This document shows, piece by piece, positions 2,791 to 63,373 of a DNA stretch of 64,000 nt. This DNA comes from Alphaproteobacteria bacterium (GTDB lineage: Bacteria > Pseudomonadota > Alphaproteobacteria > Rs-D84). The stretch is taken from positions 32,947 to 96,946 of the forward strand of contig JAFSOV010000017.1 of assembly GCA_017443235.1 (NCBI GenBank), given 5' to 3'. How positions within the stretch are numbered: position 1 is the first letter of the stretch; every line of letters starts with the position of its first letter. The position numbers and the translations under genes were made by a program. A model generated the notes under the pieces. That model saw only the letters and a program-made list of their open reading frames with translations, made no database searches and was not told the origin of the DNA.

Positions 2791-4191
2791 ATGAACAAAA
2801 AAATCATTAAAATTTTTATCTTGTTATTTATTATCGTATTTTTTGCATGGGTATTAAAATGGATTCATCACGAATTTGGGCGAATAAATTTTGATGAAAT
2901 CGCGATAGTATTAAATTCTGGCATTGGCGGCACAGATTCCAAAATATTGTGGTCTTTTGTTCGCAAGGTTATTTTACGTTCCGTATTTTATGCGGCATTG
3001 GGCACATTTATTTGTCATCGGTTCAAATACAAACGAAACATTTTATTATTGGTTTTTGGTTGCTATACGACATTTATGATTATACAAATTGCCATACGCA
3101 ATGTCCAATTCGGCAGTTTTTTCAATTTCACAAAATCAAATTTTTATGAAACAGAATACGTTGACCCCGAAACCGCAAATATACAATGGCCACAAAAAAG
3201 AAACGTTTTGATAATCGCACTGGAAAGCATCGAAAAAGTATATGGTGACCAAGAAAAATTTGGCGAAGTACTGACCCCATATATAACCGAATTAGAACAC
3301 AAAAATGTATCATTTGAAAATTATCATTCTATATCTGGACTGTCACATACAATTGCGGCAATCACCGGATTTGTATCCGGCCTGCCACTTTTCTATACCA
3401 GTTATCGAAACACCGACAAAATGACCGGCGCATACGGCATAGGGAAAATATTAAACCGGGCCGGATATCAAACTTGGTCTATTTTCCCGGCCAGTGGTAA
3501 TTTTTCCAAGAAAGAATCTTTTATGTACAACATGGGTTTTGACCACGTAATTGACGGTGAAAAAATATATGCCGAATTGAAAAATCCGCCAAAACAAAGG
3601 CCGTTTAAGGGCGTTGATGACGGGGTTTTATTCGAATGGTCTAAACCACTGTTATCGAACATAATAAAATCCAAACAACCATATTTTATATTTATGGAAA
3701 CAATCAACACTCACTTAGAAGGATTCTTTACGGATTACTGTCGCAATATGGGTTTCAAACAAGAAACCATGCAAGACATTACAAAATGTGACGATAAAAT
3801 TATCTATGATTTTGTAAAATGGTTTCGCAATGCGGACCCGACCGCCGTCATAATCCTGTTGAATGACCATAAACAACATTCGGGTCCATTGATGAAGAAA
3901 TTAAATACTATAACGGACAGACCTTTGGCCAACGTGTTTATAAACGCAAAAATTTTTGACGGCGCGGATTTACATCGTCCTGTATCGGCAATGGACTTTT
4001 TCCCGACAATGTTGGAATCTGCCGGTGCAAAAATAGATGGATGCAAATTGGCGTTGGGTGTATCACTAAGTGCGCGATGCAAGGCCACAAAAACATTACG
4101 CGAAAGATTTCCTGATAAAGAATTGCGAACTAAAATGGAACAGAAAAATGACCTGTACTATGAACTTGCCACCGGAAAGGATAAAAAATGA
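2791..4191 (+). CDS. sulfatase/LTA-synthase-family membrane transferase (MdoB/OpgB-like phosphoglycerol transferase)
   Basis: Start moved to the in-frame ATG at 2791 (MNKKIIKIFILLF). N-terminal TM helices followed by a sulfatase-type domain (ETINTHLEGF). Overlaps and precedes dgkA. Confidence 0.65.
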   Translation: MNKKIIKIFILLFIIVFFAWVLKWIHHEFGRINFDEIAIVLNSGIGGTDSKILWSFVRKVILRSVFYAALGTFICHRFKYKRNILLLVFGCYTTFMIIQIAIRNVQFGSFFNFTKSNFYETEYVDPETANIQWPQKRNVLIIALESIEKVYGDQEKFGEVLTPYITELEHKNVSFENYHSISGLSHTIAAITGFVSGLPLFYTSYRNTDKMTGAYGIGKILNRAGYQTWSIFPASGNFSKKESFMYNMGFDHVIDGEKIYAELKNPPKQRPFKGVDDGVLFEWSKPLLSNIIKSKQPYFIFMETINTHLEGFFTDYCRNMGFKQETMQDITKCDDKIIYDFVKWFRNADPTAVIILLNDHKQHSGPLMKKLNTITDRPLANVFINAKIFDGADLHRPVSAMDFFPTMLESAGAKIDGCKLALGVSLSARCKATKTLRERFPDKELRTKMEQKNDLYYELATGKDKK

Positions 4192-4550
4192 AATCAAATG
4201 ACACGGGCCTGCGCCGCATATTCCGCGCATTTCAACATTCCATTGATGGAATAATCGCCACATTCCGGTCGGAACCCGCATTTCGCCAAGACATTATTTT
4301 ATGTGTTTTGGCCGCTGTATTATCGTGCTTTTTGGACGTATCAACAATGTCGCGTATAATAATGTTGTTTTCATTGTCCTTCATAATTATTGCAGAATTG
4401 GTCAATACCGCCCTAGAAACCATTATCGACAGAATCAGTCCGGACAAACACCCACTGTCCAAAAAGGCCAAAGACATAGGCAGCGCAATCGTAATGATAA
4501 CCATAATATGCGTATGCGCACTTTGGGTCGCACTGATATTTTTGGGGTAA
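4188..4550 (+). CDS. dgkA: diacylglycerol kinase
   Basis: 120 aa, three TM segments, ELVNTALETIIDRISP and KDIGSAIV motifs typical of DgkA. Confidence 0.85.
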   Translation: MKSNDTGLRRIFRAFQHSIDGIIATFRSEPAFRQDIILCVLAAVLSCFLDVSTMSRIIMLFSLSFIIIAELVNTALETIIDRISPDKHPLSKKAKDIGSAIVMITIICVCALWVALIFLG

Positions 4551-4560
4551 AATTTGGCGG

Positions 4561-5256
4561 TTATGCCACCCTCAATTTTTTCAATTTTGCCTTGTTTTGT
4601 GACGATATGCGGCGCGATTTTTGTGCCTTTTGTATTGCACAGTTATGCGTCCATTTACCAACGCGTCTTTCTTTGAAATACGGCAAAATACTGTCATATT
4701 GCTTTGCCAATGCCGTGGACAAATACCACGCCTGCATCATATTTACATAGTATTCTTTGGATTTAACGCCAACAACCATATCAACATATGTTGTATCAAA
4801 TTTATCTTCCAAAAAATACCGCATCAGGCACAATATCGCAAAACGCACCGTATAGGCGTGTTTTGATTTAATCCATTTTTTTATATACGGCAATAATTTT
4901 TCCGGGTTTTCCGCAAATATTTTCGGCGACATCTGGTCACATGTTGCCCAATTATCAACGTATGGTAAAAATTTATTAACCTGGCTCACCACAAAATCAA
5001 AATCAAGAATTTCTGAAATTATGAACGTGTGCAACTGGTTTTCTTCCAAAAAATGATGTGGCAAATCCGCGATAAATTCGTGCCAATTTCCCCGTTCCAC
5101 CATATCACACGCAATTGCGCGCAAATCCGGCGTCCGCACACCAATAACCGTATCTGGATCAACCGAAGTTATTAGGTTGATACTGTAATCTCGGTATTCT
5201 TTATCTGCCGCCGCATACAATAAATCAAGAATTTCTTTTTTGTTCATCACAACCAC
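4561..5256 (-). CDS. DNA alkylation repair protein (AlkD/AlkC-like HEAT-repeat)
   Basis: 231 aa. Pattern YVDNWATCDQ, YTVRFAILCL, MMQAWYLSTA. Likely start is the MNKKE at 5247. Confidence 0.65.
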   Translation of the reverse strand: MVVMNKKEILDLLYAAADKEYRDYSINLITSVDPDTVIGVRTPDLRAIACDMVERGNWHEFIADLPHHFLEENQLHTFIISEILDFDFVVSQVNKFLPYVDNWATCDQMSPKIFAENPEKLLPYIKKWIKSKHAYTVRFAILCLMRYFLEDKFDTTYVDMVVGVKSKEYYVNMMQAWYLSTALAKQYDSILPYFKERRVGKWTHNCAIQKAQKSRRISSQNKAKLKKLRVA

Positions 5257-5450
5257 CCATAAAATTAGATTTATTTATTTTTCCACCGTTTTAATAATGT
5301 GATTATAATTCAAAAAATCCAAAACGGTATAAAAATATGATTCGGCGACCATGCGGCGAAGGGATTGTATATTCCCACTCATTTCATTCGTGGGCCCCTT
5401 TCCACTCGTAAGGCTCGAACGGCGCACTTGCTTGTTTTCGCCAACTATCG

Positions 5451-5568
5451 TGTCGGACCTGAGGTCCTCATCCATCGTGACTAGACCAAAAATTAAACCC
5501 CGAATAAATCGGGGTTGAATTTTTGGTAGCGGCGAAGGGATTCGGACCCCTGACCAAAGGATTATGAT
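5451..5568. repeat. 118-bp direct repeat, left copy. Contains the 3' 45 nt of tRNA-Met(CAU) plus its downstream hairpin.
   Basis: Aligns to 8373-8490 at a constant offset of 2922 with 5 mismatches, all outside the tRNA part. Identity stops exactly at the anticodon loop (ATCATAA). Confidence 0.85.
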
Positions 5569-5814
5569 AAGTTTGAGATAAAAACCAAATAACGCAGATT
5601 CCTGCGGATTACAGCGATTTTTTAATTGCAAAAAAAATTCGTGTGTAGAGAATGTGTAGAGCCAAGTTTATCCTAAAACCATATGCGTTTGTAGCTAAAA
5701 CCTCTTACTTCCCACAAAAAACCATTCCGCAGATTTTATAAATTGAGCTAGCTAGGGATTTTTATTGTATTATCCATAAACTTGTGCCATATTGTTGTTA
5801 TCAAAGGATTGTAT

Positions 5815-6828
5815 ATGGCAACAGGATTAAAACCAATAAATGGCGAAATATTTTTGTATAAAGACGACTATGGTACGGTCAAATTGAACGGTTTGATATA
5901 TGGTGAATCTTTATGGTTGACTCAGGCAGCTATCGCGGAATTGTTTAATGTGGACCGAAGTGTTGTCACAAAACACATACAAAATATATATTCTGATGGC
6001 GAATTAAAAGACGAAACGACATGTGCAAATTTTGCACATTTGCAGAAATCCGGTGGGTTCCCAGCGCAAAAACCAACAAATTATTACAATCTTGATATGA
6101 TAATATCTGTTGGGTATCGCGTTAACTCAAAGCGGGCAACCCAGTTTCGCATTTGGGCAACAAAAGTCCTGCACGAATACATACAAAAAGGCTTTGCGCT
6201 GGATGATGAACGCTTAAAAATGGCAGGAAAACCATTTGGGGTTGATTATTTTCGTGAATTATTAGAACGTGTCCGGTCTATCAGGGCATCAGAACGCCGT
6301 ATTTATCAACAAATAACCGATATTTTTGCCGAATGCAGTATTGATTATGACCCGAATTCTGAAACTGCTTTCAACTTTTACGCGAACATACAGAACAAAT
6401 TTCACTATGCAATACATGGACATACCGCTGCCGAAATTATCAAGGGACGCGCTAACTTGGAAAAACCACATATGGGACTGACCACATGGAAAAATTCCCC
6501 AAATGGTCGCATATTGAAAACAGATGTGTCCATCGCAAAGAATTATCTAAACGAAAAAGAATTAAAAGACCTTGAACGCTTGGTGACAATGTTTTTTGAC
6601 TATATCGAACACCAAATCGAAGACAAAAAAGCGTTTAATATGGCACAATTCGCAGAATCTGTTGATAAACTACTTACATTTAATGATTATAAAGTATTGC
6701 ATGGCTTGGGCAGCATAAGTGCCGCCGATGCAAAACAATATGCCGAAGCCGTATACAATGAATTCAACAAGACACAAAACATCGAAAGCGACTTTGACAG
6801 AATTGTAAAATTAACCAATGAGGAATAA
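5815..6828 (+). CDS. RhuM-family protein
   Basis: MATGLKP... with WLTQAAIAELF, VVTKHIQNIY, YYNLDMIISVGYRVNSKRATQFRIWATKVL. Start placed at 5815 after AAGGA. Confidence 0.75.
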   Translation: MATGLKPINGEIFLYKDDYGTVKLNGLIYGESLWLTQAAIAELFNVDRSVVTKHIQNIYSDGELKDETTCANFAHLQKSGGFPAQKPTNYYNLDMIISVGYRVNSKRATQFRIWATKVLHEYIQKGFALDDERLKMAGKPFGVDYFRELLERVRSIRASERRIYQQITDIFAECSIDYDPNSETAFNFYANIQNKFHYAIHGHTAAEIIKGRANLEKPHMGLTTWKNSPNGRILKTDVSIAKNYLNEKELKDLERLVTMFFDYIEHQIEDKKAFNMAQFAESVDKLLTFNDYKVLHGLGSISAADAKQYAEAVYNEFNKTQNIESDFDRIVKLTNEE

Positions 6829-8667: not shown

Positions 8668-9234
8668 ATGAAGCGTTTTATTTTTATTTTATCCGCAATT
8701 TTTTTAACCGCGATGCCGGCGTTTGGGGCGGATGGCAAAAACACCTTTACCGGTTTTTATAAAAACCAATTATCGTTCAATATTGGCCAGGGTATAAACA
8801 GTGGATTCATATTACCCCCACCGAACCAATTCGTTCCATTTAACCTGTTCAGCCTAAGTTATTCGCAACCGACAACATTTTTTGGTGTTCCGGCGCGCCA
8901 ATCTTTAAACGTCAACCAGACATTGGGATACGGCGACAAATATGGTTGGCATTGGCGCGACTATACGATTCCAATGGTTATGTTATCGGGTGATGTGCGG
9001 TTATCAGAATACAAAAATTTCTATGTCGCCGCCGGCGCAGGTGTCGGTATGCAGGCACAACAGAACGAACGCCTGGGCGCAAAATTACTGTTTCAGTTCA
9101 AGGTTATTGCCGGTTGGCACATAAATGACAAATGGGGGTTTGAAATATTTATGCACCATTTTTCAAACGGCAACACCGCACCCCAGAACTATTCATACGC
9201 ATTTTACGGCATCGGTGTAAATTATAATTTTTGA
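8668..9234 (+). CDS. PagL-like lipid A deacylase / acyloxyacyl hydrolase outer-membrane protein
   Basis: Signal peptide, beta-barrel-like sequence, HHFSNGN catalytic-type motif, C-terminal aromatic residue. Confidence 0.6.
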   Translation: MKRFIFILSAIFLTAMPAFGADGKNTFTGFYKNQLSFNIGQGINSGFILPPPNQFVPFNLFSLSYSQPTTFFGVPARQSLNVNQTLGYGDKYGWHWRDYTIPMVMLSGDVRLSEYKNFYVAAGAGVGMQAQQNERLGAKLLFQFKVIAGWHINDKWGFEIFMHHFSNGNTAPQNYSYAFYGIGVNYNF

Positions 9235-9419
9235 TGGTTATTATTACTAAATAATTTGTGATTGCGCACATAAAACTGGCGCGACAACAAACCAAAAATC
9301 AAAGACAGTTCACTGAATGTGAATTTATATTTTGGATGTTTATCAAAGAATTTTTCTAAACAGAAAATCAGCGATTCTTTATGTAATTTTTCTAGATATT
9401 TATCTGCTTCTGATTGCAT
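9222..9419 (-). CDS. 65-aa cassette protein (class 1, KHPxY motif)
   Basis: ATG at 9419 with AAGGAA RBS. The track start at 9443 is a TTG. Homologous to ORF 15509-15691 (KESLIFCLEKFFDKHPKYKFTFSELSLIFGLL vs KEELITAVLDFYSKHPNYRMSQNEFVGLICAI). Confidence 0.6.
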   Translation of the reverse strand: MQSEADKYLEKLHKESLIFCLEKFFDKHPKYKFTFSELSLIFGLLSRQFYVRNHKLFSNNNHQKL

Positions 9420-9451
9420 TTTTAATTCCTTGGTTTTTTTCAAAAGTTATC

Positions 9452-9630
9452 AAAAAACCGTCCAGAAAAATCAAGACGGTTGGAGGTTAAAGACTATTAC
9501 ACCAGAAATAGGTGGGCTTATTCAATATATTCGCCTCCCTCCAACCATCGGTTGGAGGTATTTTGTGTCCCCTCGGACACTGGTGTAAAACATGGGTCTT
9601 TAATCCCCAATCAACAGAACACCCGTTGAC
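9452..9630 (-). ncRNA. structured leader RNA, cassette copy A
   Basis: Helices 9596-9603/9487-9494 and 9580-9587/9498-9505. CCTCCAACC (9558-9550), GGTTGGAGG (9546-9538) and CCTCCAACC (9486-9478), the last overlapping terminator 9481-9456 plus a T-run. Compensatory changes relative to copy B. The 5' end is only approximate. Confidence 0.65.
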
Positions 9631-9672
9631 GCCATAAATATACAATAAAACACAAAAAAATCAAATCAAAAA

Positions 9673-9770
9673 TAGTGGTTAGTGGATAGAGTAAGTGGTT
9701 AGTAGATTCTGGAATAGTTTCGTAATTGTGCGCTTATTCCAGATATAACTAACCACTAGCCACTAACACC
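9673..9770. repeat. palindromic array of TTAGTGG-type heptads around a CTGGAATA/TATTCCAG hairpin
   Basis: TAGTGGTTAGTGGATAGAGTAAGTGGTTAGTAG ... CTAACCACTAGCCACTAAC. Confidence 0.8.
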
Positions 9771-13966: not shown

Positions 13967-14539
13967 ATGAAATTCAAATTATTGTATTTTGGCGAAATTT
14001 TAATAAATCCCAAAAAACGGGCCCAGCATATATCCGACATTCGTATGCAATTTCACCCGCAATTAAAGAAATTGGTCGAACACCAACCGTGGGACAAATT
14101 GACCCAATATATGGCGCCGAACCCGGCCAAAAGCCCAATCATTACCCGTCATGTCGGTGGCATAGATTGGAACCCGATTATTACGCCAAAATTGAAATTG
14201 ATTGCGGAATTGGACATCCAAATGTTGCACCCGGAAATTATTGGTGTTCCGCGTTCAGACATCGACAACCGTATCAAGACATTATTCGACGGTCTGCGTT
14301 GTCCACAAAACGAACACGAAATTGGGCAAAACGTTCCACGTGACGCGGGACCGATTTATACCCTGCTGGATGACGACCATTTGATAACCAAGATATCCGT
14401 GAATACCAGTCACTTGCTGTCATCACATATGTTTCATCCGGACCTGGCCACGGCCAGTCCCGATTGCGTATTTATGATGATTGACGTGAACCTGCGCGTG
14501 GCCGAAGGAACATTAGAAAACCTGCCGTTTATGGTGTAA
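13967..14539 (+). CDS. RusA-like (Holliday-junction-resolvase fold) protein with C-terminal extension, tentative
   Basis: RSDIDNRIKTLFDGL ... LLDDDHLI matches the RusA D-[IL]-DN-x2-K-x3-D-x-L ... DD pattern. Confidence 0.45.
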   Translation: MKFKLLYFGEILINPKKRAQHISDIRMQFHPQLKKLVEHQPWDKLTQYMAPNPAKSPIITRHVGGIDWNPIITPKLKLIAELDIQMLHPEIIGVPRSDIDNRIKTLFDGLRCPQNEHEIGQNVPRDAGPIYTLLDDDHLITKISVNTSHLLSSHMFHPDLATASPDCVFMMIDVNLRVAEGTLENLPFMV

Positions 14540-14551
14540 AGGAATATCGTT

Positions 14552-15382
14552 ATGACAAAAACTGTCACAATCTTTGGAAAAAAATATCCGGCATACGAAT
14601 ATAATGCAACCGAATTGCGGTATATTCTGTCAGATTTTTTTAAAACACAAAGACATTTTTCTGCCAAAGAATATTACGATTACGTTATAAAACATCACCC
14701 AGAATACAAAAGCTTTTTTCATCCAACCGAAAGACAAATTGAAAAAATGATTATTGAAAAACTAGGTCGGGGCGCGATGGACGGCGCAAACAGTGTAATC
14801 TATTTTGACAATAAATTCGGAACAAAAATTGCCGCAGATTATAAATACCCAAACAATATGTCCGATATAGAATACCATTTTTATATGATAAAGAAACGCG
14901 GCTTTGCCACTATTTCAGGAAAAATAAATATCAAAGATAAACAAAGTGCATACCTGGAAGCATGGCAAAATATGCATTATCCACCAGAAAATGATATGCA
15001 AATTTTGCACGAACTGTATTATGAAATACTGGAATTAAATCCGGAATTAAAACTGTACAATTTTGATATCAACAACCGACAAAGGCTTATACAATTTCTT
15101 TACGGAATTTGTTACAGGTTGCCAATAGCAGACATTATGAAGTTTGTAACCGGTCGCACAGAACAAGAAACCAAGGAAGAATTAAACAATAAAATCAAAT
15201 CACTTGAAAAATATGGAATACAACGAATGGATTTTGGATGGATTACATCTGACGAAACAATAAAAAGAATCGAACAACAAATGGCAACAAAAGTATTGGA
15301 ACGTGCCACAGAAAAAATTAAACAAAACGATACCCAACCAAAGAAACAAAGGAAATTTATAAACATCTTTAAACAGCGTTGA
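14552..15382 (+). CDS. hypothetical protein (276 aa), AT-rich, bracketed by a 24-bp direct repeat
   Basis: AGAAAACCTGCCGTTTATGGTGTA occurs at 14515-14538 and at 15387-15410. Confidence 0.55.
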   Translation: MTKTVTIFGKKYPAYEYNATELRYILSDFFKTQRHFSAKEYYDYVIKHHPEYKSFFHPTERQIEKMIIEKLGRGAMDGANSVIYFDNKFGTKIAADYKYPNNMSDIEYHFYMIKKRGFATISGKINIKDKQSAYLEAWQNMHYPPENDMQILHELYYEILELNPELKLYNFDINNRQRLIQFLYGICYRLPIADIMKFVTGRTEQETKEELNNKIKSLEKYGIQRMDFGWITSDETIKRIEQQMATKVLERATEKIKQNDTQPKKQRKFINIFKQR

Positions 15383-15508
15383 TAAAAGAAAACCTGCCGT
15401 TTATGGTGTAGAGTGATTATCCGTCTTCGCAATCTTGCGATTGCTACGCCGAGACTGCGCCCGACCATGTCTGGCTTGGTGGCGATTGTTGATGATAACT
15501 AATTTATA

Positions 15509-15691
15509 CTAAATATCACTCATCATTTGTTGGGTTATTGCACAAATTAAACCAACGAATTCATTTTGGGACATTCTGTAATTGGGATGTTTAGAATAAA
15601 AATCCAAAACCGCGGTAATCAATTCTTCTTTGCCGGAATAAACCTTTACTTTGGGTTTTGTAATATTTTCTCCTTTTGATTTATTTAACAA
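15509..15691 (-). CDS. ~55-60-aa cassette protein (class 1, KHPxY motif), start uncertain
   Basis: Homolog of 9222-9419. The track start TTG lies inside the leader terminator T-run. AAAGGAG is followed by ATT. No in-frame ATG lies near the 5' end. Confidence 0.5.
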   Translation of the reverse strand: MLNKSKGENITKPKVKVYSGKEELITAVLDFYSKHPNYRMSQNEFVGLICAITQQMMSDI

Positions 15692-15872
15692 AAAACCGCC
15701 CGGAAAAAATCAAGACGGTTGGAGGTTAAAGAACTATTACGTTAGAAATAGGTGGGCCTTATTCATTTATTCAGGCCCCCTCCAACCGATGGTTGGAGGG
15801 TTTTTATGTCCCCACGGACACTAACGTAATAGAGGTTCTTTAATCCCTCATCAACAGAACGCCTGTTGACAA
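15690..15872 (-). ncRNA. structured leader RNA, cassette copy B
   Basis: Helices 15835-15843/15726-15734 and 15821-15828/15738-15745. CCTCCAACC (15799-15791), GGTTGGAGG (15787-15779), CCTCCAACC (15725-15717). Terminator plus T-run ends about 15690. Confidence 0.65.
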
Positions 15873-15913
15873 TGGAAACATATAATAAAATCAACTAAAA
15901 ATCAAATATAAAA

Positions 15914-15937
15914 TTCCAGAATCTACTAACCGCTAAC
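15914..15937. repeat. TTAGNGG-type heptads overlapping the stop codon of the upstream gene
   Basis: Minus-strand reading: GAGTTAGCGGTTAGTAGATTCTGGAA. Matches the arm of the 9673-9770 palindrome. Confidence 0.7.
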
Positions 15938-17063
15938 TCAAAAACGCCGTGATTTGGTCTTGCATTTGGAATGTTCCCAACACTATCCACGCAATGACAC
16001 CGGATATCAATAATATTCCAACCGTATTCAATGTTTCCGCCAAAGATTCGATTCTTTTAACAGAATTTTCCAAATAGTCATTTGAAATCTGGGTCAGGTT
16101 TTCATCAAAATCGTTCATATCGGCATAAATTGTCAAATCGCCAATCAGTTCATTGTTTGGAAAATCCATCCCCGTATTCTGTAATGCGTTCCCAAGGTTG
16201 TCACCATTTGCAATATAATGCAAAGTTTCTTCTAAAATACGCCGCAGATACCTGTTTGAATTATCCGCCAACATTCGCATTGCGTCCGGTATCGTCACAC
16301 CGGCCGCCACCATCGCAGAAAGCGACATCATCCAACTGACCGACAAACGAATTTTATATATGTTCCATGGTGGCAAATTATCCAACATCGCACGAACGCG
16401 TCCCGAAAGTCTTGGCAAAGACCACCATATAAAACACATCATCACGGCAAACACCACCGAAAAAGGTTTCCAATAATTTCCGGCCAAATTTGATAACCAT
16501 ATAAGTGACGCCGCGCCCCCAGACCAAACCATATTATCACCGGCAACCGCGGACAGGGGCGGAACCAGATAAAGCCCGACCATAATTATAATCGCAAAAA
16601 CCAAAACCAATAATAATGTCGGGTATGCAATGGCACTGAATACTGCGCCCCCTATTCTTTTATTTGCAACAATTATACGCCCGACATTTTCAAGTGCGAC
16701 AATCAAACTGGACATATTCCCGGATGTAAGCAGTAATGTTTCTTCGGCCGGAACCCAACCACGTGTGGCCTCGGAAAAACTAAGACCGCGTTCCAGGTTT
16801 TTTTCCCATTCGCGCATACATATTGCAAACGGTTCGTTTGGTTTTGCACCGCCATGCGATTCTATCATTTGCAACCGGTTCAACGCGTTCACCAAAGTGA
16901 AATCATTTTTCAGCAATGAAACCAATTTACGCCAAATCGATATACGTTTGTCATTACTGAGTTTGCAAACCATTTTGGCGTAAAATATTTCAAGTCTGTT
17001 CATATCAATAAACCCCCGGTCTGTCCAGAAGTCCAACCCAGCGTTCCAATTCATCAACACCAA
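15933..17063 (-). CDS. GspF/PilC-family inner-membrane platform protein (PilR-type in type IVb nomenclature)
   Basis: 376 aa, TM segments and two GspF-like repeats. Overlaps the upstream ATPase gene. Confidence 0.75.
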   Translation of the reverse strand: MVLMNWNAGLDFWTDRGFIDMNRLEIFYAKMVCKLSNDKRISIWRKLVSLLKNDFTLVNALNRLQMIESHGGAKPNEPFAICMREWEKNLERGLSFSEATRGWVPAEETLLLTSGNMSSLIVALENVGRIIVANKRIGGAVFSAIAYPTLLLVLVFAIIIMVGLYLVPPLSAVAGDNMVWSGGAASLIWLSNLAGNYWKPFSVVFAVMMCFIWWSLPRLSGRVRAMLDNLPPWNIYKIRLSVSWMMSLSAMVAAGVTIPDAMRMLADNSNRYLRRILEETLHYIANGDNLGNALQNTGMDFPNNELIGDLTIYADMNDFDENLTQISNDYLENSVKRIESLAETLNTVGILLISGVIAWIVLGTFQMQDQITAFLS

Positions 17064-30606: not shown

Positions 30607-31218
30607 ATGTTAAAAAATATTGTAATTTTTGCACTGTGTTTTTTACCTGTTTTGTCTTTTGCAAACGATTGTGTTAAATACAAACAAACACCAAGTATAA
30701 ATGTAAATTCGCCGATATATAAAAAAAATATTATTCAATCAAATGAACAAATGGATAAATTTCACGGAAATGTGATTGCCACATTGGTTGAAGATTACGA
30801 CATTGCGGTTGATATATTTTCAACGCCTGGCGGATATTGTGTTGTATTAAAATCTGTGGATGCGTTGATTGGATATAACGATTTTTCTGTTAAAATTGAT
30901 GGTTCGCATAAATCGGGTTCTTGTTCATATAATGCGGTATTGAATCACGAAGATAAACATATAAATGCATATTTGTCTGTGATGGATGATTTAGGTATGG
31001 ATATAAACAGTTCGATATTTAATGCCGCAGATTCAATAATGCCAATATTTGTATCATCACGTGATGATATAGATTTTGCGGTGGAAGAAATAAATTATGA
31101 AATGCGTCAACATCCAGAATTGATTTTAATGAAACAAAAAATCAACGCAGCCCAAGAAATTCGTAATAAACGCGTTGACCAAAACGAAGATAATCACGAA
31201 TTAAAATCGTGTTTATAG
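30607..31218 (+). CDS. secreted protein with HExxH motif (putative Zn-metallopeptidase, DUF922-like?)
   Basis: Start at ATG 30607 (MLKNIVIFALCFLPVLSFA signal peptide). Contains LNHEDKHINAY. The track start at 30499 lies inside virB4. Confidence 0.45.
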   Translation: MLKNIVIFALCFLPVLSFANDCVKYKQTPSINVNSPIYKKNIIQSNEQMDKFHGNVIATLVEDYDIAVDIFSTPGGYCVVLKSVDALIGYNDFSVKIDGSHKSGSCSYNAVLNHEDKHINAYLSVMDDLGMDINSSIFNAADSIMPIFVSSRDDIDFAVEEINYEMRQHPELILMKQKINAAQEIRNKRVDQNEDNHELKSCL

Positions 31219-31239
31219 TGGTTAGTGTTAGTGGTTAGT
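31216..31239. repeat. TTAGTGG heptad array beginning at the stop codon
   Basis: TAGTGGTTAGTGTTAGTGGTTAGT. Confidence 0.8.
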
Positions 31240-31263
31240 AAAACGGCGCATTGCGCCGTTTTT
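31240..31263. terminator. bidirectional intrinsic terminator
   Basis: AAAACGGCGCATTGCGCCGTTTTT between two convergent genes. Confidence 0.8.
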
Positions 31264-31474
31264 AATTCATCTTGCATCGCAACATACAAAAACCGCGAGT
31301 GAATAACGTTATTAAAATATTTTCTGGAATTGGTTCTTTGCCGCATTCGTACCTGTGCCATTGTCTAACAGATATATGAAACATTTTCGCCAAATCTTTT
31401 GTTTTCATATTTTGATTTTTTCGTGTGCAACGCAATATTTTTCCAAAATACTTTGAATCAACCAATACAACCAT
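31262..31474 (-). CDS. 70-aa XRE-family helix-turn-helix protein (cassette class 2)
   Basis: MKTKDLAKMFHISVRQWHRYECGKEPIP is a typical HTH. GGAGG RBS. Paralog of 62627-62854. Confidence 0.75.
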   Translation of the reverse strand: MVVLVDSKYFGKILRCTRKNQNMKTKDLAKMFHISVRQWHRYECGKEPIPENILITLFTRGFCMLRCKMN

Positions 31475-31499
31475 TTTTTACCTCCATATTTTTATTGTT

Positions 31500-31651
31500 A
31501 AAAAACCGTCAATGACAGGTTGACGGTTGGAGGCTAGAAAACCACATATATAAGATGGGTGTCGCTTATTCAATATATTCGCGACCCTCCAACCAAGTGG
31601 AGTTTTATATATATAGGGATTTTCTAGACCCCGCAACGGTGTCATCCGCGC
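31500..31651 (-). ncRNA. structured leader RNA, cassette copy C
   Basis: S1 31627-31619/31542-31534. Hairpin 31585-31561 (GTCGC, loop, GCGAC). GGTTGGAGG 31594-31586 vs CCTCCAACC 31533-31525, overlapping terminator 31528-31504 plus a T-run. Confidence 0.7.
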
Positions 31652-31657
31652 AAGCGT

Positions 31658-31686
31658 ATTATAATTGAAAACGGTTGCGATTGCAA
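31658..31686 (-). promoter_or_regulatory. sigma70 promoter of cassette C, embedded in the dnaG terminator hairpin
   Basis: TTGCAA (31686-81), 17 nt, TATAAT (31663-58). Same architecture as 62367-62395. Confidence 0.65.
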
Positions 31687-31694
31687 CCGTTTTG

Positions 31695-31789
31695 CAACTA
31701 CCCCGCCACCGCTGGTGGCCCTCCCCTTCTGAATCCACCCCAAAAAATTTCATTTTTCGGGGGCCCCGGTATAAGAAGGGGACTATCCA
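31695..31789. repeat. CCCCTTC/GAAGGGG...GGGGTAG REP-like unit (variant)
   Basis: Minus-strand reading: TCCCCTTC...GAAGGGGAGGGCCACCAGCGGTGGCGGGGTAG. Related to 43914-43960, 54259-54394 and 62558-62603. Confidence 0.55.
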
Positions 31790-33403
31790 CTAAACCAACA
31801 TTTCAAATTTTTCACGCATACGGGAAATTTCATCGTCTATACGGCGGATTTCCACGCTTACATCATTTTCTCCGGCAAGACCACGCGCGGTTAAATCACG
31901 TTTTTGTTTTTCTAAACTTTCAATATATTTTTGAATCTTTAACGAAATTATATACTTTTCCGCGGAATTCAAATCTAAATCAAAGTTTGGTTTTATATTT
32001 GAATCCAAATCCAGGTTAAATTTACTAATAAAATCGCCATACCTTTCGGCAATTTCCGGATATTTATTTACAATGTATATAAGTATGTTTTTGATAACAT
32101 TATCAATTTCTGGAACTTCTATATTTGATGAATTTTTTGAACCGTTATAATCTCGCCATTCTTTATATCTGCGATTTTTATAATCACGTTCATATTCATA
32201 CTTTAATAAATTATCTTGTATTTTATCTGTGCTTTGTTTCAAGAATTTTTCTGCCTGGGTTCGACCGGATGGCGTTTTTATTAAAAAATTCTTATTTGCT
32301 ATATTCCACAGAAAATCAACCAAAGGAACCGCATTGTTTATAATTTTCTCCATTTCCCCCCTGCCCGATTTGCGCAGTATTTCATCCGGGTCTTTGCCGC
32401 CCGTCACAAATGCAAAACTGACATTCGAATTATCACGCAAGAACGGTAATATTATACCGCACGCACGTGCCGCGGCCTTTTGTCCCGCGTTATCACCATC
32501 AAAACAGAAAACAATATTCCGGTTTGCCTTGCATAAAATTGCGATATGGTCTTCGGTCAATGCGGTACCAAGTGGCGCAACCGTTTCACCAAAACCATTA
32601 CATTGCATTTGAATTGCATCTATTTGCCCCTCTACAATAATTGCGCGGTTTGCGCGGTGTATATTTTCGCGTGCAAAATTAAACCCAAACAAAGTTTGCC
32701 GTTTGTGAAACATTTCTGTGTCTGTGGTATTTATATATTTTGGCTCTGACCCGTCCAGGCTGCGCCCGGAAAAAGCAACAATTTGCCCCCGCGCATTAAA
32801 AATTGGAAACATCAATTTATCGCGAAAGAAATCGTACAGGCCATATTCACCGCGGCGTACCAAACCCGTTGCAATAAGTTTTTCTTGTTTTGTGTTCACA
32901 AATTTATTTGCAATTATGTTATTTTTTGGTGCGTACCCAATACCATATTTTTTTATCATTTCATCACTGAACCCGCGCCCACGTATGTAGGACAGCGCAT
33001 GTGCACCTTCGGGTGCGAATAATTTTTCCGCGTATATTTTTGCCGCCGCGGTTGTAATTGTCACATATGTTTCTTCGGCCTCGATTTGTTCTGCGGTTTT
33101 TGGTTTGTATTCCGGCAACTTTAATCCCGCCATATCGGCCAATTCGGCAATTGCGGTTTTGAAATCAACATGTTCACTTTCCATAGTAAAAGAAATAATA
33201 TCACCGTGTTTTCCGCAACCAAAACAGTGATAAAAACCTTTTTCTTCACTGACCGAAAAAGATGGTGTTTTTTCATTATGAAATGGGCAACACCCCCAAT
33301 AATTTTGACCTTTCTTGACCAGTGGTACACGACGGGATATAACGTCTACGATGGAAAGTCGTTCACGTAATTGGTCGGTAAAATTATTGTCATATTTCGC
33401 CAT
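31790..33403 (-). CDS. dnaG: DNA primase
   Basis: Zinc finger CPFHNEKTPSFSV...CFGCGKHGD. TOPRIM IIVEGQIDA. Confidence 0.9.
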   Translation of the reverse strand: MAKYDNNFTDQLRERLSIVDVISRRVPLVKKGQNYWGCCPFHNEKTPSFSVSEEKGFYHCFGCGKHGDIISFTMESEHVDFKTAIAELADMAGLKLPEYKPKTAEQIEAEETYVTITTAAAKIYAEKLFAPEGAHALSYIRGRGFSDEMIKKYGIGYAPKNNIIANKFVNTKQEKLIATGLVRRGEYGLYDFFRDKLMFPIFNARGQIVAFSGRSLDGSEPKYINTTDTEMFHKRQTLFGFNFARENIHRANRAIIVEGQIDAIQMQCNGFGETVAPLGTALTEDHIAILCKANRNIVFCFDGDNAGQKAAARACGIILPFLRDNSNVSFAFVTGGKDPDEILRKSGRGEMEKIINNAVPLVDFLWNIANKNFLIKTPSGRTQAEKFLKQSTDKIQDNLLKYEYERDYKNRRYKEWRDYNGSKNSSNIEVPEIDNVIKNILIYIVNKYPEIAERYGDFISKFNLDLDSNIKPNFDLDLNSAEKYIISLKIQKYIESLEKQKRDLTARGLAGENDVSVEIRRIDDEISRMREKFEMLV

Positions 33404-58215: not shown

Positions 58216-58292
58216 TGGTGGGTGGTATTGGACTCGAACCAACGACCTTTACGATGTCAACGTAACGCTCTAACCAACTGAGCTAACCACCC
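58216..58292 (-). tRNA. tRNA-Val (GAC)
   Basis: GGGTGGT acceptor, TTACG-TTGACAT-CGTAA anticodon arm, TTCGAGT T-loop, encoded CCA. Confidence 0.9.
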
Positions 58293-58318
58293 ATATTTTT
58301 CAAGTGTTCTCAGACCGG

Positions 58319-58375
58319 GAACCAACGACCTTTACGATGTCAACGTACGCGGCTTCCCAACCGAGCTAACCACCC
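58319..58375 (-). pseudogene. 5' fragment (about nt 1-57) of a tRNA-Val(GAC) copy
   Basis: GGGTGGTTAGCTCGGTTGGGAAGCCGCGTACGTTGACATCGTAAAGGTCGTTGGTTC, then unrelated sequence. The D arm is altered and the T-arm 3' half and acceptor 3' strand are missing. Confidence 0.7.
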
Positions 58376-58386
58376 AAACGAACGCC

Positions 58387-58414
58387 ATTATAACAAAGAA
58401 TTTCCCGATTGCAA
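58387..58414 (-). promoter_or_regulatory. sigma70 promoter driving the tRNA-Val fragment and tRNA-Val
   Basis: TTGCAA (58414-09), 16 nt, TATAAT (58392-87), about 11 nt before the fragment. Confidence 0.6.
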
Positions 58415-58445: not shown

Positions 58446-58600
58446 AGAAAAGCAGGAGGGTCATAACTACTCAAAGCAAAATAGTCCAGTGTATTGGGTA
58501 TTTCACTGGCCTCCTGCCATTGTGAAGTGTGCAGGATTTTATGTCCGCGCGGACATGCTTTGAGCAGGGCTATGACACCCCCTTGTACGGTTGCCCGTAC
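58446..58600 (-). ncRNA. candidate ~155-nt sRNA of unknown family
   Basis: TTGAAA (58635-30), 17 nt, TATAAT (58612-07). Several hairpins. A closing stem with a 3' CCTCCTGC followed by TTTTCTT. No plausible ORF. Confidence 0.35.
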
Positions 58601-60982: not shown

Positions 60983-62341
60983 ATGCCAAAAATAAAAAAA
61001 GTTTTAATTGCCAATCGTGGCGAAATTGCGTTGCGAATAATTCGCGCGTGTCGCGATATGGGTATTCGTACGGTCGCGGTTTATTCGACCATTGACCGTA
61101 ATGCTATGCATGTCCAATTGGCGGACGAATCGGTGTGTATTGGCCCGGGCCCGTCCAAGGATTCATACCTTAACGAATCGGCGATATTGACGGCGGCATT
61201 GTTGACCAATGCGGATGCAATTCACCCGGGTTATGGTTTTTTATCGGAACGTGCGGACTTTGTTCAAAAGGTTGAACAGCACGGTTTAATCTGGATTGGG
61301 CCGGACGCCGCAATGATAAATAAAATGGGCGACAAAGTGAACGCCAAGAAAACCGCCATTGAATGTGGGTTGCCGGTTGTGCCGGGTTCCGATGGCGCCG
61401 TTGAAACATTGGAAGACGCATTAAAATGGGGTGAAAAAATCGGTTATCCCGTTATGTTAAAGGCGGCCGCCGGTGGTGGTGGTCGTGGTATGCGACCCGT
61501 TATGTCGGCGGACCAAATGGCCGAGGCATTCGAAATCACCAAGAACGAGGCGCGCAGTGGTTTCGGTGATGATACACTGTATATGGAAAAATTATTGTTG
61601 CACCCGCGTCATATTGAATTTCAGGTCTTGGGCGATAAACACGGCAACGTTGTAATCTTTGGTGAGCGCGATTGTTCGTTGCAAAGAAAAAATCAAAAGG
61701 TTATGGAAGAATGCCCGGCCGCGGCGTTGACCCAGAAACAGCGTGACGATATGATTGAAATTTGCAAAACGGCCGCGAAAAAAATGGGCTATACCAATGC
61801 CGGCACTTTCGAATTTATGTACGAAGGCGGAAAATTCTATTTCTTGGAAATGAATACCCGGCTTCAGGTTGAACACCCGGTAACCGAAATGGTATATGGT
61901 GTCGATTTGGTGCGCGAACAAATTCGCATTGCCGCCGGCGAGAAATTAGGCTATACCCAGGCCAATGTTATTCCGCACGGCCACGCAATCGAATTTCGTA
62001 TCAATGCCGAAGACCCGCAAGACTTTGTTCCAAACCCGGGCAAAATCACATTGTATGCGCCGTCGGGTGGATTGGGGGTGCGTGTGGACAGTGCGGTTTA
62101 TACCGGATACACGATTCCACCAACATATGATTCGATGATTGCGAAATTGATTGTTCATGCACAATCGCGTTCGGCGTGCATTATGCGTGCGGAACGTGCA
62201 TTGGACGAATTTGTTATCGAAGGTGTTAAAACAACGATTCCATTGCAAAAGAAATTGTTAAATAACCGTGATGTTCGAACATTGAACTTTGATAATCATT
62301 GGTTGGAAGAATATTTGAAAAAAGAAAATAAAAAGAAGTAA
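60983..62341 (+). CDS. accC: biotin carboxylase
   Basis: KVLIANRGEIALRIIRA, ATP-grasp motifs, EMNTRLQVEHPVTE. Confidence 0.95.
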   Translation: MPKIKKVLIANRGEIALRIIRACRDMGIRTVAVYSTIDRNAMHVQLADESVCIGPGPSKDSYLNESAILTAALLTNADAIHPGYGFLSERADFVQKVEQHGLIWIGPDAAMINKMGDKVNAKKTAIECGLPVVPGSDGAVETLEDALKWGEKIGYPVMLKAAAGGGGRGMRPVMSADQMAEAFEITKNEARSGFGDDTLYMEKLLLHPRHIEFQVLGDKHGNVVIFGERDCSLQRKNQKVMEECPAAALTQKQRDDMIEICKTAAKKMGYTNAGTFEFMYEGGKFYFLEMNTRLQVEHPVTEMVYGVDLVREQIRIAAGEKLGYTQANVIPHGHAIEFRINAEDPQDFVPNPGKITLYAPSGGLGVRVDSAVYTGYTIPPTYDSMIAKLIVHAQSRSACIMRAERALDEFVIEGVKTTIPLQKKLLNNRDVRTLNFDNHWLEEYLKKENKKK

Positions 62342-62357
62342 GTGTTAGTGGTTAGTG
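62342..62357. repeat. TTAGTGG heptads immediately after the accC stop codon
   Basis: TAA-GTGTTAGTGGTTAGTG. Confidence 0.8.
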
Positions 62358-62366
62358 CGAAAACGG

Positions 62367-62395
62367 TTGCAATTGCGGCCGTTTTTATTTATAAT
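62367..62395 (+). promoter_or_regulatory. sigma70 promoter of cassette D, embedded in the accC terminator hairpin
   Basis: TTGCAA (62367-72), 17 nt, TATAAT (62390-95). Confidence 0.65.
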
Positions 62396-62401
62396 GTTTT
62401 C

Positions 62402-62554
62402 GCATTGGGTGACAACCATTGCGGGGTCTAGAAAACCCCTTTAACACAGCAAAATCTCCACTTGGTTGGAGGGTTGCGAATATATCGAATAAGCAACACT
62501 GTTTTGTGTTACAGTTTTCTAGCCTCCAACCGTCAATCATTTTGACGGTTTTTT
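62402..62554 (+). ncRNA. structured leader RNA, cassette copy D
   Basis: S1 62428-36/62514-22. Helix 62442-54/62502-11. Hairpin 62473-97. GGTTGGAGG 62464-72 vs CCTCCAACC 62523-31, overlapping terminator 62528-50 plus a T-run to 62554. Confidence 0.7.
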
Positions 62555-62557
62555 AAT

Positions 62558-62603
62558 CCCCTTAACATTGTGAAGGGGGGGACCACCGGGGGTGATGGGG
62601 TAG
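62558..62603. repeat. REP-like unit CCCCTTAACATTGTGAAGGGG..GGGGTAG between the leader terminator and the HTH ORF
   Basis: Same family as 43914-43960 and 54259-54394. Confidence 0.65.
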
Positions 62604-62626
62604 AAAAAAAACAAAAGGAGAGAAAA

Positions 62627-62854
62627 ATGGTCACATTGGTTGATGCGAAATATTTTGGCAATCTTTTACGATTTGCACGCAGGCACAGTCGCCTAAATTC
62701 AGACGAAGTTGCAAGGATATTTTCAATATCCGTTCGGCAATTGCATAGATATGAACAGGGCAAAGAAGTAATCCCGTGTAATATTTTACAATCTTTGTTT
62801 CATCATGGATTCTGTTTGTTGCGGTGCCGACGCATACCACCAAAACACAAATAG
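62627..62854 (+). CDS. 75-aa XRE-family helix-turn-helix protein (cassette class 2)
   Basis: ATG 62627 with AAGGAG RBS. MVTLVDAKYFGNLLRFARRH...VARIFSISVRQLHRYEQGKEVIP. Paralog of 31262-31474. Confidence 0.75.
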   Translation: MVTLVDAKYFGNLLRFARRHSRLNSDEVARIFSISVRQLHRYEQGKEVIPCNILQSLFHHGFCLLRCRRIPPKHK

Positions 62855-62877
62855 AAAACGGGCGCGATTGCGCCCGC
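62854..62877. terminator. bidirectional intrinsic terminator
   Basis: GAAAACGGGCGCGATTGCGCCCGC between two convergent genes. Confidence 0.7.
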
Positions 62878-62908
62878 ACTAACCACTACCACTAACACTA
62901 ACCACTAA
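62877..62908. repeat. inverted TTAGTGG heptad array abutting the sspB stop codon
   Basis: CACTAACCACTACCACTAACACTAACCACTAA. Confidence 0.8.
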
Positions 62909-63373
62909 TCACTTCTTCCGCCGTCTAAATTCATCCAATGATACAACGCGGCCGGTGTCGGGAATTGTGTCACCCGTTCCTTCCAATGGTAATTCTATAT
63001 CATTGTCCGGTGCAGACGGTTTCGGGCGTTTATTAAACGACAATATAAAATCAACCGACGGGTCTTTGAATTCCACCAATGCCGAAAAAGGAACGCGAAT
63101 AAAAAACGGCCGCCCATCAAACGTCAATTGAACACCAAATTCTTTGTCCGACACGTGCAGGTTATTATAAGAATACTGCAACACAATCGTCATTATGTCC
63201 GGGTATCGTATACGCAGGAAATCCGGCAATACAACCCCCGCATCATGCGTGCGAAATGTTATAAAGAAATGCGTCCCGTCACCCAGTCCGTTTATCTGCG
63301 CAAAAACCAACGCATCACGCACCACAGATTTTAACGCCGTGTCCAACAAAGCCTGATAGTCTATTTTTGCCAT
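62909..63373 (-). CDS. sspB: ClpXP adaptor SspB (alphaproteobacterial type)
   Basis: HFFITFRTHDAGVVLPDFLRIRYPDIMTIVLQYSYNNLHV...FIRVPFSALVEFKDPSVDF. Confidence 0.7.
   Translation of the reverse strand: MAKIDYQALLDTALKSVVRDALVFAQINGLGDGTHFFITFRTHDAGVVLPDFLRIRYPDIMTIVLQYSYNNLHVSDKEFGVQLTFDGRPFFIRVPFSALVEFKDPSVDFILSFNKRPKPSAPDNDIELPLEGTGDTIPDTGRVVSLDEFRRRKK

Follow-up and report, generated by a model that had tools for sequence, protein, structure and literature searches.

We analysed a stretch of 64,000 nt (the window) from an Alphaproteobacteria bacterium of the Rs-D84 lineage (assembly GCA_017443235.1, contig JAFSOV010000017.1, positions 32,947–96,946 of the forward strand), and within it a short intergenic cassette, copy B, which lies directly behind the platform gene of a pilus operon. 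Comparison of sequences identifies the RNA of this cassette as a member of a previously uncatalogued family of leader RNAs in Rs-D84 Alphaproteobacteria, strongly conserved, multi-copy and predicted to exist in two states. We consider it probable that this leader is a cis-acting switch between a terminator and an antiterminator. An earlier, sequence-only reading of this DNA had described the cassette as a discrete repeated unit, and that description holds: its helices covary and its copies occur at many loci.

Organization of Copy B

Every feature of copy B lies on the minus strand, at the position that the sequence-only reading gave for it. From upstream to downstream, the parts of the cassette are:

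15913..15937, minus strand: 5' border motif GTTAGCGGTTAGTAGATTCTGGAAT, a heptamer repeat overlapping the TAG stop codon (15935–15933) of the T2SSF gene
15879..15905, minus strand: putative promoter, TTGATT-15 nt-TATATG, weaker than consensus, at a position homologous in copy A and in locus L062
15851..15870, minus strand: hp0, the 5'-terminal hairpin GUCAACAGGCGUUCUGUUGA; the aligned copies have hp0 too, with differing sequences
15821..15849, minus strand: 5' strands of P0 (GAGG), P1 (UUAAAGAAC, 15835–15843) and P2 (AUUACGUUAG, 15821–15830)
15807..15820, minus strand: hpA, hairpin UGUCC-GUGG-GGACA, all five pairs of which are changed on both sides across the family
15791..15799, minus strand: seg1 CCUCCAACC, predicted to pair with seg2 in the terminator-permissive fold (anti-antiterminator)
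15779..15787, minus strand: seg2 GGUUGGAGG, the partner common to seg1 and seg3
15755..15777, minus strand: hpGC, hairpin with the conserved loop GAAUA...GAAUAAG and a covarying stem
15734..15751, minus strand: hp2, local hairpin CUAUU-loop-AAUAG, whose loop and 3' arm are the P2 3' strand (15736–15745)
15726..15734, minus strand: P1 3' strand GUUCUUUAA
15745–15726, minus strand: P2 and P1 3' strands together
15717..15725, minus strand: seg3 CCUCCAACC; its CCUC pairs with P0 and its AACC is the terminator base, or the whole 9-mer pairs with seg2
15690..15720, minus strand: intrinsic terminator AACCGUCUUG...CCGGGCGGUU, then a U6 run
15509..15676, minus strand: Shine-Dalgarno site AAAGGAG (15676–15670) and a 51-codon open reading frame (ORF) of B type, stop codon TAG 15511–15509

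The proposed beginning of the cassette at the stop of the platform gene was confirmed, with the TAG at 15935–15933 lying within GAGTTAGCGGTTAGTAG; the ORF that it closes (15933–17063, minus strand) encodes a T2SSF platform protein (Pfam T2SSF, E=2.6e-24). The differences from a second copy in the window, copy A, had also been read correctly. The second helix, P2, is AUUACGUUAG/CUAACGUAAU in copy B (15821–15830 / 15736–15745) and UACACCAG/CUGGUGUA in copy A, with three consecutive pairs changed, all compensated and all still paired, and the outer helix is one pair longer in copy B (UUAAAGAAC/GUUCUUUAA) than in copy A (UUAAAGAC/GUCUUUAA). All three 9-mers (CCTCCAACC/GGTTGGAGG) are retained, at 15799–15791, 15787–15779 and 15725–15717, and the 9-mer has 10 exact matches in the window against 0.25 expected. 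For the terminator, the hairpin at 15720–15690 is present as claimed; the reading's count of one G.U pair differs slightly from the two given by RNAfold. The predicted folding energy of copy B is -78.9 kcal/mol (z = -7.1 against shuffled sequences; copy A, z = -5.6).

The putative promoter of copy B fails a 9/12 promoter scan; its counterparts are TTGATT-16-TATATT in copy A and TTGATT-17-TATATT in L062, and that of L127 is identical to copy B. In the alternative fold described below, the GAGG of P0 enters a local hairpin, hp1 (GAGG...CCUC). The hairpin hpA is missing from the subtype to which two other copies in the window, C and D, belong.

Family Size, Common Plan and Downstream Genes

A pattern scan over one genome per species returned at least 117 loci, nearly all in gut metagenome-assembled genomes (MAGs) of animal and human origin labelled Candidatus Enterousia, Alphaproteobacteria or Rickettsiales. 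A profile search with nhmmer gave 22 further matches outside the pattern, of which the 17 scoring above 28 bits were counted as divergent copies, and the family totals more than 140 copies in Candidatus Enterousia / Rs-D84 MAGs. The RNA recurs in more than 100 unrelated intergenic contexts. Members of Enterousia (order Rs-D84) are uncultured, with genomes mostly smaller than 1 Mb (PMC12306168). At the gathering threshold, Rfam 15 reported only tRNAs in the window and no family reached threshold at the cassette. Literature searches on the 9-mers and on Enterousia brought up nothing about this RNA. A phage origin was considered and rejected, with only 3 matches in 2.9 million viral contigs.

Each unit is laid out as a sigma-70-type promoter, an RNA of ~180 nt, an intrinsic terminator, a Shine-Dalgarno site and an ORF. 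An alignment of 120 distinct copies (A2) gave the common plan. Its 5' part comprises a -35 element TTGCAA, a -10 element TATAAT, the 5'-terminal hairpin, GGGG, the P1 5' strand and CCC. The P2 5' strand, which varies, is followed by hpA (optional), a linker rich in A and seg1 (CUCCAAC), which a variable loop separates from seg2 (GGUUGGAGGG). Next come hpGC with the loop GAAUAUAUUGAAUAAG, the P2 3' strand between CUAU and AUAG, the P1 3' strand and seg3 (CCUCCAACC); the 3' end consists of the terminator, whose 5' arm starts with the AACC of seg3, a U-run, the Shine-Dalgarno site and the ORF. Terminator hairpin and U-run are found in 119 of the 120 copies. A Shine-Dalgarno site and an ORF stand behind 113 of the 120, with the ORF starting at a median of ~50 nt past seg3, which leaves no space for a separate promoter.

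The 113 downstream ORFs are diverse: 64 (~57%) are signal-peptide-like, 27 (~24%) belong to one XRE-like family of 70–95 aa, and 23 are of other kinds, including a second small family of helix-turn-helix (HTH) appearance. Some of the downstream ORFs are 51-aa proteins of B type, and the ORFs of copies C and D belong to the XRE-like family (HTH_19, 25–26 bits, under the cut-off).

Covariation of Two Alternative Folds

In the first fold, L, the helices P0, P1 and P2 surround hpA, the seg1:seg2 hairpin and hpGC, and the terminator is present as well; 109 of the 120 copies adopt this fold when folded singly. On A2, its helices are paired in 92% of cells and contain 407 double-change cells against 130 in shuffles, with none of 500 shuffles reaching the score; when the 3' partners were slid by one to three columns, pairing dropped to 34–54%. 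Covariation is seen, most clearly, in P1 (95% paired; pair 63:234 is CG49/AU48/GC11/UA3), in hpA, in the hpGC stem (pair 171:198, GC51/UA41/CG18) and in the terminator stem (pair 246:266, AU56/GC55 across the family). P2 is too variable to align. Its cognate 5' and 3' strands nevertheless form duplexes of -19.6 kcal/mol on average against -11.8 for non-cognate strands, and P2 is thus copy-specific.

The second fold, X, joins seg2 to seg3 in a helix that encloses hpGC and the local hairpin hp2; upstream of this helix, hp1 forms. Compensated changes occur in the stem of hp2 (pair 203:226, UA98/AU17; pair 204:225, AU107/GC8), and in hp1 an A at position 49 is accompanied by U at position 70 in 16 of 19 copies. 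Since the pattern used for selection makes seg2:seg3 invariant by construction, this helix was tested on copies found without that constraint, among which double changes occur at five of the nine pairs and pairing extends to 97.6% of cells, a result matched by 0 of 500 shuffles. In L086, L099, L012 and the divergent copy E of the window, seg1, seg2 and seg3 change in concert, for example to CUCCUGAU / GGUCAGGAGG / CCUCCUGACC.

Judging from their topology, L and X would be mutually exclusive: their helices cross, and the P1 3' strand passes into seg3 practically without a linker. When the AACC of seg3 is available, the mean energy of the terminator hairpin is -8.2 kcal/mol; without it the mean is -3.0, and in 92% of copies the residual hairpin is weaker than -6.

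Several copies (L050 203–403, L076 1268–1462, L008 2137–2318 and L012 7080–7273) carry a stable hairpin in place of the middle of the hpGC loop and keep the flanking GAAUA and AAUAAG. Because of these insertions, the conserved "loop" of hpGC is probably an internal-loop motif and a candidate binding site.

The helices contain 369 G.U cells and 77 A.C cells (4.8 to 1), and this excess indicates that the structure is read on the sense-strand RNA. It bears directly on the suggestion that the palindromes act as DNA, whether as recombination sites, as single-stranded DNA hairpins of a miniature mobile element or as operators for an HTH protein of the cassette, with RNA folding incidental. Such a role would fit the inverted GTTAGTGGTTAGT repeats that bracket the cassettes (with 22-nt arms at copy D), the variable presence of cassettes at one locus among relatives, and the perfect 9-bp inverted repeat formed by seg1 and seg2. 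However, the 4.8-to-1 ratio means that one strand is read, the spacing between seg1 and seg2 ranges from 2 to ~15 nt, which suits a hairpin loop and not a dimeric operator, the long-range helices covary with wholly different sequences, and many cassettes have no gene for an HTH protein. We therefore give a purely DNA-level function very little probability.

On the plus strand, the seg1:seg2 hairpin (15778–15800; 9538–9558 in copy A) precedes a T-run, the complement of an A-run that lies ahead of seg1 on the sense strand, and scores as terminator-like. Read in this direction, it might stop antisense transcription from convergent genes.

A Proposed Switch Between Termination and Read-Through

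The leader RNA has two features expected of an attenuator, namely a terminator between the promoter and a promoter-less ORF and a conserved alternative pairing that overlaps this terminator. We propose a three-segment logic, in which seg1:seg2 would be the anti-antiterminator, seg2:seg3 the antiterminator, and seg3 with the downstream arm the terminator. By default, in L, the 5' strands of P0, P1 and P2 would pair with their 3' strands and enclose the seg1:seg2 hairpin and hpGC; the AACC of seg3 would be free to seed the terminator, and transcription would end ahead of the ORF. In X, seg2 would take the whole of seg3, hp1 and hp2 would stand in for P0, P1 and P2, and the terminator would lose four basal pairs, allowing RNA polymerase to continue into the ORF. 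For read-through, a protein, small molecule or RNA would have to block the formation of P1 and P2 or stabilise the X core, and the best candidate for a recognition element is the invariant GAAUA...AAUAAG of hpGC. The proposal builds on what the alignments establish, that is, the family itself, the covariation behind both folds, the overlap of seg3 with the terminator, the strand-specific folding and the gene close behind the terminator; that read-through is regulated is the part that we infer.

Two other candidates were rejected. Targeting of the copy's own ribosome-binding region by the variable loop of hp2, in the manner of c4 or P4 CI RNA, showed no specificity: cognate and non-cognate pairs both gave -7.38 kcal/mol, and 47.5% of cognate pairs beat the non-cognate median. 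A leader peptide or mini-ORF behind the Shine-Dalgarno-like GGAGG of seg2 is, by inspection, not conserved among variants.

Several observations weigh against a regulated switch. X is less stable than L by 10 kcal/mol on average and by 18.6 kcal/mol in copy B, from which it follows both that termination should be the default and that a strong stabilising factor or kinetic control would be required. The heterogeneity of the downstream genes (64 signal-peptide-like, 27 XRE-like and 23 other) means that the ligand cannot be guessed from them. In some copies, such as copy D, a residual terminator of 5 bp persists in X. Copy E has neither an ORF nor a separate terminator and better fits a free-standing small RNA (sRNA). 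Finally, the sub-consensus promoter of copy B and the ATT at the start of its ORF, discussed below, may mean that copy B itself is decaying.

Accordingly, the main rival to the switch is a free-standing, trans-acting sRNA gene distantly related to sRNA-Xcc1, whose product would be the ~180-nt RNA or a processed seg2-to-seg3 core, with the ORF incidental or expressed by leak-through. The element has its own promoter and terminator, and L with its intact terminator is strongly favoured. In copy E the seg2:seg3 helix is followed by a U-run, as in the Rfam model of sRNA-Xcc1, and five copies give full-length, sub-threshold matches to that model. In Xanthomonas, sRNA-Xcc1 (RF02221) was detected as an RNA of ~88 nt with mapped ends (PMC2996969), and the literature places it in a five-copy array in a Xylella island, upstream of symE in integron cassettes and upstream of an ORF6N gene in APSE phages. 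On the other side, the leader RNA has no conserved single-stranded seed outside the hpGC loop, P1 and P2 are hypervariable and copy-specific, and a Shine-Dalgarno site and an ORF stand directly behind 113 of 120 copies with no room for a promoter. In a simple sRNA, neither a seg3 that overlaps the terminator nor two covarying alternative folds would have a purpose, and the scores lie far under the Rfam gathering cut-off of 53. We regard the sRNA explanation as rather unlikely, although it is compatible with a termination switch and the two are not mutually exclusive.

The Small ORF of Copy B and Its Start Codon

The gene that the proposed switch would control in copy B is small. As the sequence-only reading had it, the ORF is homologous to that of copy A, if weakly so (31% identity over 36 aa, pairwise E=2e-6), and has no ATG; its candidate starts are a TTG at 15691–15689 and an ATT at 15664–15662, 5 nt past AAAGGAG. 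The nearest relative, L127 (JAZNSK010000015), has a cassette 98–99% identical to copy B overall, with promoter and RNA 100% identical, and carries ATG where the window has ATT. By this comparison, the start position of the copy B ORF is 15664–15662 and the lack of an ATG comes down to one change, from ATG in L127 to ATT in the window. ATT is a rare natural start codon. The ATT may still initiate translation, may mark a recent loss of the gene or may be an assembly error. That the ORF is a real gene is supported by a dN/dS of 0.155 against its L062 homologue and by 51-aa homologues of B type (P0121–P0126), which begin with MTKPKVK or MKK.

Small proteins of A and B type have no match in Pfam, PHROGs or NCBIfam. 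This bears on a further alternative, an RNA–protein toxin–antitoxin or immunity module (type III, type I, or like c4 / P4 CI) in which the RNA neutralises or represses the small protein. The order promoter, RNA, terminator, small ORF resembles that of toxIN-type loci, in integron cassettes of Xanthomonas the toxin gene symE is preceded by sRNA-Xcc1, and the ORFs of copies C and D weakly match HTH models of the MqsA/Xre antitoxin type. However, long secreted proteins and HTH regulators make up most of the downstream genes, which do not form one toxin family; the RNA is a single unit with no tandem repeats; the hp2 loop lacks copy-specific complementarity to its own ribosome-binding region; and the A and B ORFs match none of the families searched. 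We consider such a module highly improbable, and the leader switch continues to be our preferred explanation.

In a relative (JAZROX010000052), two cassettes (L062 6478–6666 and L090 ~4160–4300) that between them occupy the positions of copies A and B carry near-identical 47-aa ORFs of B type, which differ by one residue, whereas the A and B ORFs of the window are only 31% identical. This likeness suggests conversion or replacement between cassette copies inside one genome.

Other Copies in the Window

The window holds five copies, A–D found by BLAST and exact-word searches and E by the profile search. Those other than copy B are:

9222..9767, minus strand: copy A, with border palindrome arms at 9671–9767, promoter 9664–9637, RNA ~9632–9452 (9445–9632 in the comparison with copy B) and a 65-aa ORF at 9418–9222
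31214..31794, minus strand: copy C, XRE subtype, with borders at 31782–31794 and, inverted, at 31214–31239, RNA ~31663–31500 and a 70-aa HTH ORF at 31474–31262
62338..62909, plus strand: copy D, XRE subtype, with 22-nt inverted repeats at 62338–62359 and 62875–62896, RNA ~62397–62553 and a 75-aa HTH ORF at 62627–62854
58455..58581, minus strand: copy E, divergent, with seg2 GGCAGGAGG and seg3 CCUCCUGC (nhmmer E=6.4e-7)

In copy E, which lacks an ORF and a separate terminator, the seg2:seg3 helix leads directly into UUUUCUU. After it (58219–58411) come a TTGCAA/TATAAT promoter-like site, a degenerate tRNA-like half-copy at ~58376–58310 and a real tRNA at 58219–58292.

Cassette Borders and Mobility

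The edges of the cassettes are marked by a repeat. With up to two mismatches, GTTAGTGGTTAGT has 12 matches in the window where 0.66 would be expected, every one of them at an edge of cassettes A–D. In most cases the motif and the stop codon of the adjacent gene overlap; the motif has opposite orientations on the two sides, and the heptamer repeat gives TAG in several frames. It is located as follows:

9671–9767: copy A
15925–15937: copy B
31214–31239 and 31782–31794: copy C
62338–62359 and 62875–62909: copy D
3700–3735 of L128: B-type cassette in another genome

Copy D lies between 22-nt inverted repeats. In L128/L129, the B-type ORF, the RNA and the border motif occur together at another locus, between a DUF4143 gene and infC, with the motif upstream of the cassette; many species lack the motif. 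Taken with the presence, absence or exchange of cassettes at the same locus among relatives, the GTTAGTGGTTAGT-type borders suggest that the cassette behaves as a movable unit. Beside copy A there is also an "empty" palindrome with the same arms (9694–9716 / 9735–9757).

A wider proposal, which we put forward tentatively and rate a little short of an even chance, is that the leader RNA represents a new class of cis-regulatory switch, either an orphan riboswitch or a protein-controlled antiterminator with an sRNA-Xcc1-like core. In gut Rs-D84 genomes of less than 1 Mb, it would be the main control of small XRE regulators and of proteins that are secreted or at the surface, and would spread as plug-in cassettes bordered by stop-codon-rich heptamer repeats at the stops of housekeeping genes. 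If so, a large share of accessory genes, mostly secreted or surface proteins and small regulators, would be under one RNA switch; the density is five copies in 64 kb, in a group for which genomes under 1 Mb are reported (PMC12306168). The family would then be a new structured RNA with unusually clear two-state covariation, a lead to a new effector and to environmental sensing, and a possible account of the role of the obscure sRNA-Xcc1-type RNAs beside genes of mobile elements. For annotation, it would cover intergenic blocks of ~180 nt, now unannotated, in hundreds of MAGs.

The Pilus Operon and Its Downstream Junction

The genes upstream of copy B encode a T2SSE ATPase, PilP (TIGR03021; the 233-aa neighbour), PilO (PF06864), a lipoprotein (the 144-aa neighbour) and LpxC. 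With PilO (PF06864, E=1.8e-8), PilP (TIGR03021, 35.8 bits against a cut-off of 34.65), the PilQ-type ATPase (PF00437) and the PilR-type platform protein (PF00482) in a row, the cluster is type IVb-like (R64/PAPI-1 type). As listed, the T2SSF ORF begins at a TTG and overlaps the ATPase gene by 59 nt (window 17005–17063); its true start is probably an ATG 20 codons further downstream, since nearly all homologues are 356 aa long.

In R64-type operons the prepilin gene comes after the platform gene, and the sequence-only reading had the cassette take that position instead, in which case it would have displaced or functionally replaced the prepilin gene. Relatives keep the order LpxC, lipoprotein, PilO, PilP, ATPase, platform, a variable slot, a convergent gene (orf190) and gyrB, and the contents of the slot do not bear this out:

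L121, platform identity 69%: slot of 48 nt with only a bidirectional terminator
L120, platform identity 81%: a 292-aa gene
L062, platform identity 92%: a Fic/winged-HTH gene and a B-type cassette
L122, platform identity 65%: an XRE-type cassette
L127 and the window, platform identity not applicable: B cassette and orf276

None of L062, L120, L121, L122 and L127 has a pilin after the platform gene, and six-frame translations of the window contain no prepilin-type motif. The type IVb-like character of the cluster, the R64 gene order and the lack of a detected pilin at the locus all speak for replacement of a prepilin gene. Yet L121, with its empty slot, lacks a pilin as well, other relatives hold unrelated genes or a different cassette there, the same type of cassette sits at more than 100 unrelated loci, and the 51-aa protein has neither a prepilin leader nor a hydrophobic N-terminus. 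The loci compared already contradict prepilin replacement, which we regard as almost certainly wrong. They indicate instead that the operon ends with the platform gene and that the point where it meets the convergent gene is a hotspot of insertion rather than a place for a pilin.

Two further observations concern this junction. In L062, a Fic/DOC-domain protein with a C-terminal winged-helix domain (5189–6229) lies between the platform gene and the cassette, apparently a further sign that the junction gathers accessory genes. In the window, a 27-nt direct repeat (96% identical; 14515–14541 and 15387–15413) brackets a 276-aa ORF, orf276 (14552–15382); its sequence is that with which the conserved orf190 ends at the 3' side, encoding ...ENLPFMV, and orf276 is present in L127 and absent from L062, L121 and L122. 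It looks like an insertion that duplicated its target.

Comparison with Known Systems

As units, the cassettes resemble integron cassettes, dif-module-like and MITE-like (miniature inverted-repeat transposable element) units in being gene-sized, bounded by conserved repeats, present or absent at one slot and equipped with varied cargo behind the same leader. Unlike integron cassettes, each has its own promoter of TTGCAA/TATAAT type, and the units are dispersed singly between housekeeping genes (gyrB, dnaG, accC) rather than arrayed by an integrase. The border GTTAG(T/C)G also misfits the attC core GTTRRRY, its sixth base being no purine. The units have neither an attC core nor the promoter-less ORF of intI-based cassettes, and no recombinase was identified, an integrase not having been searched for.

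The c4 antisense RNA of P1/P7 and the P4 CI RNA have a closing stem and two hairpins, derive from the leader of the transcript that they control and have complementary boxes up- and downstream. The leader RNA shares with them an origin in the leader of its own transcript, the closing stem with two hairpins and the repeated complementary boxes. It differs in that its variable loop has no copy-specific pairing to the ribosome-binding region and in that the repeated boxes themselves form the closing stem; the Rfam c4 and isrK models have no match at the cassette site.

The likeness to sRNA-Xcc1, the one Rfam family that recurs as a weak match, is closer. The seg2-to-seg3 core aligns end to end with the model (positions 1–87) at five copies. 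Core and model alike have a G+C-rich closing stem of 9 bp, two hairpins, the first of which carries an A/U-rich AAUA loop, and a 3' side rich in U; the closing stem of ~9 bp, the two hairpins and the U-rich tail are all present, and seg2:seg3, hpGC and hp2 are each backed by covariation. Both RNAs are also multi-copy, on movable cassettes and upstream of small accessory genes. In contrast, the leader RNA adds a 5' extension of ~100 nt (hp0, the P0/P1/P2 strands, hpA and seg1) that would compete with the core, as well as a separate terminator, and its predicted primary transcript is ~180 nt long, whereas sRNA-Xcc1 is described as a trans-acting 88-nt sRNA. The leader RNA belongs to Alphaproteobacteria of the order Rs-D84, and sRNA-Xcc1 is from Xanthomonas, Xylella and other Proteobacteria. 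With scores of 25.6 bits for copy B, 28.3 for C, 33.2 for D (the best in the window), 31.0 for L117 and 35.1 for L006 against the cut-off of 53 bits, the leader RNA lies outside RF02221 by Rfam's criterion; the search reported neither copy A nor four of eight extra loci. A distant relationship is possible, with the chances roughly even. In EDL933, the coordinate that PMC5331693 gives for sRNA-Xcc1 lies in the hok/sok region, at the right-hand end of phage 933W (L118, L123), where an Rfam 15 scan of L118, which has the same genes as L123, found only sok; the first 31 kb of phage 933W gave no sRNA-Xcc1 match.

In function, the closest analogues appear to be the transcription-terminating riboswitches and attenuators (T-box, PyrR and trp-type). 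Unlike these, the cassette RNA yielded no candidate ligand, leader peptide, tRNA specifier or protein partner and no matching Rfam family, its downstream genes do not form one pathway, and its large, copy-specific P1/P2 enclosing helix is unusual. What it shares with them is an arrangement of three segments in which the second is complementary to the first and to the third, an antiterminator that overlaps the 5' arm of an intrinsic terminator, and a position between the promoter and the Shine-Dalgarno site and ORF, with one copy per gene and many per genome.

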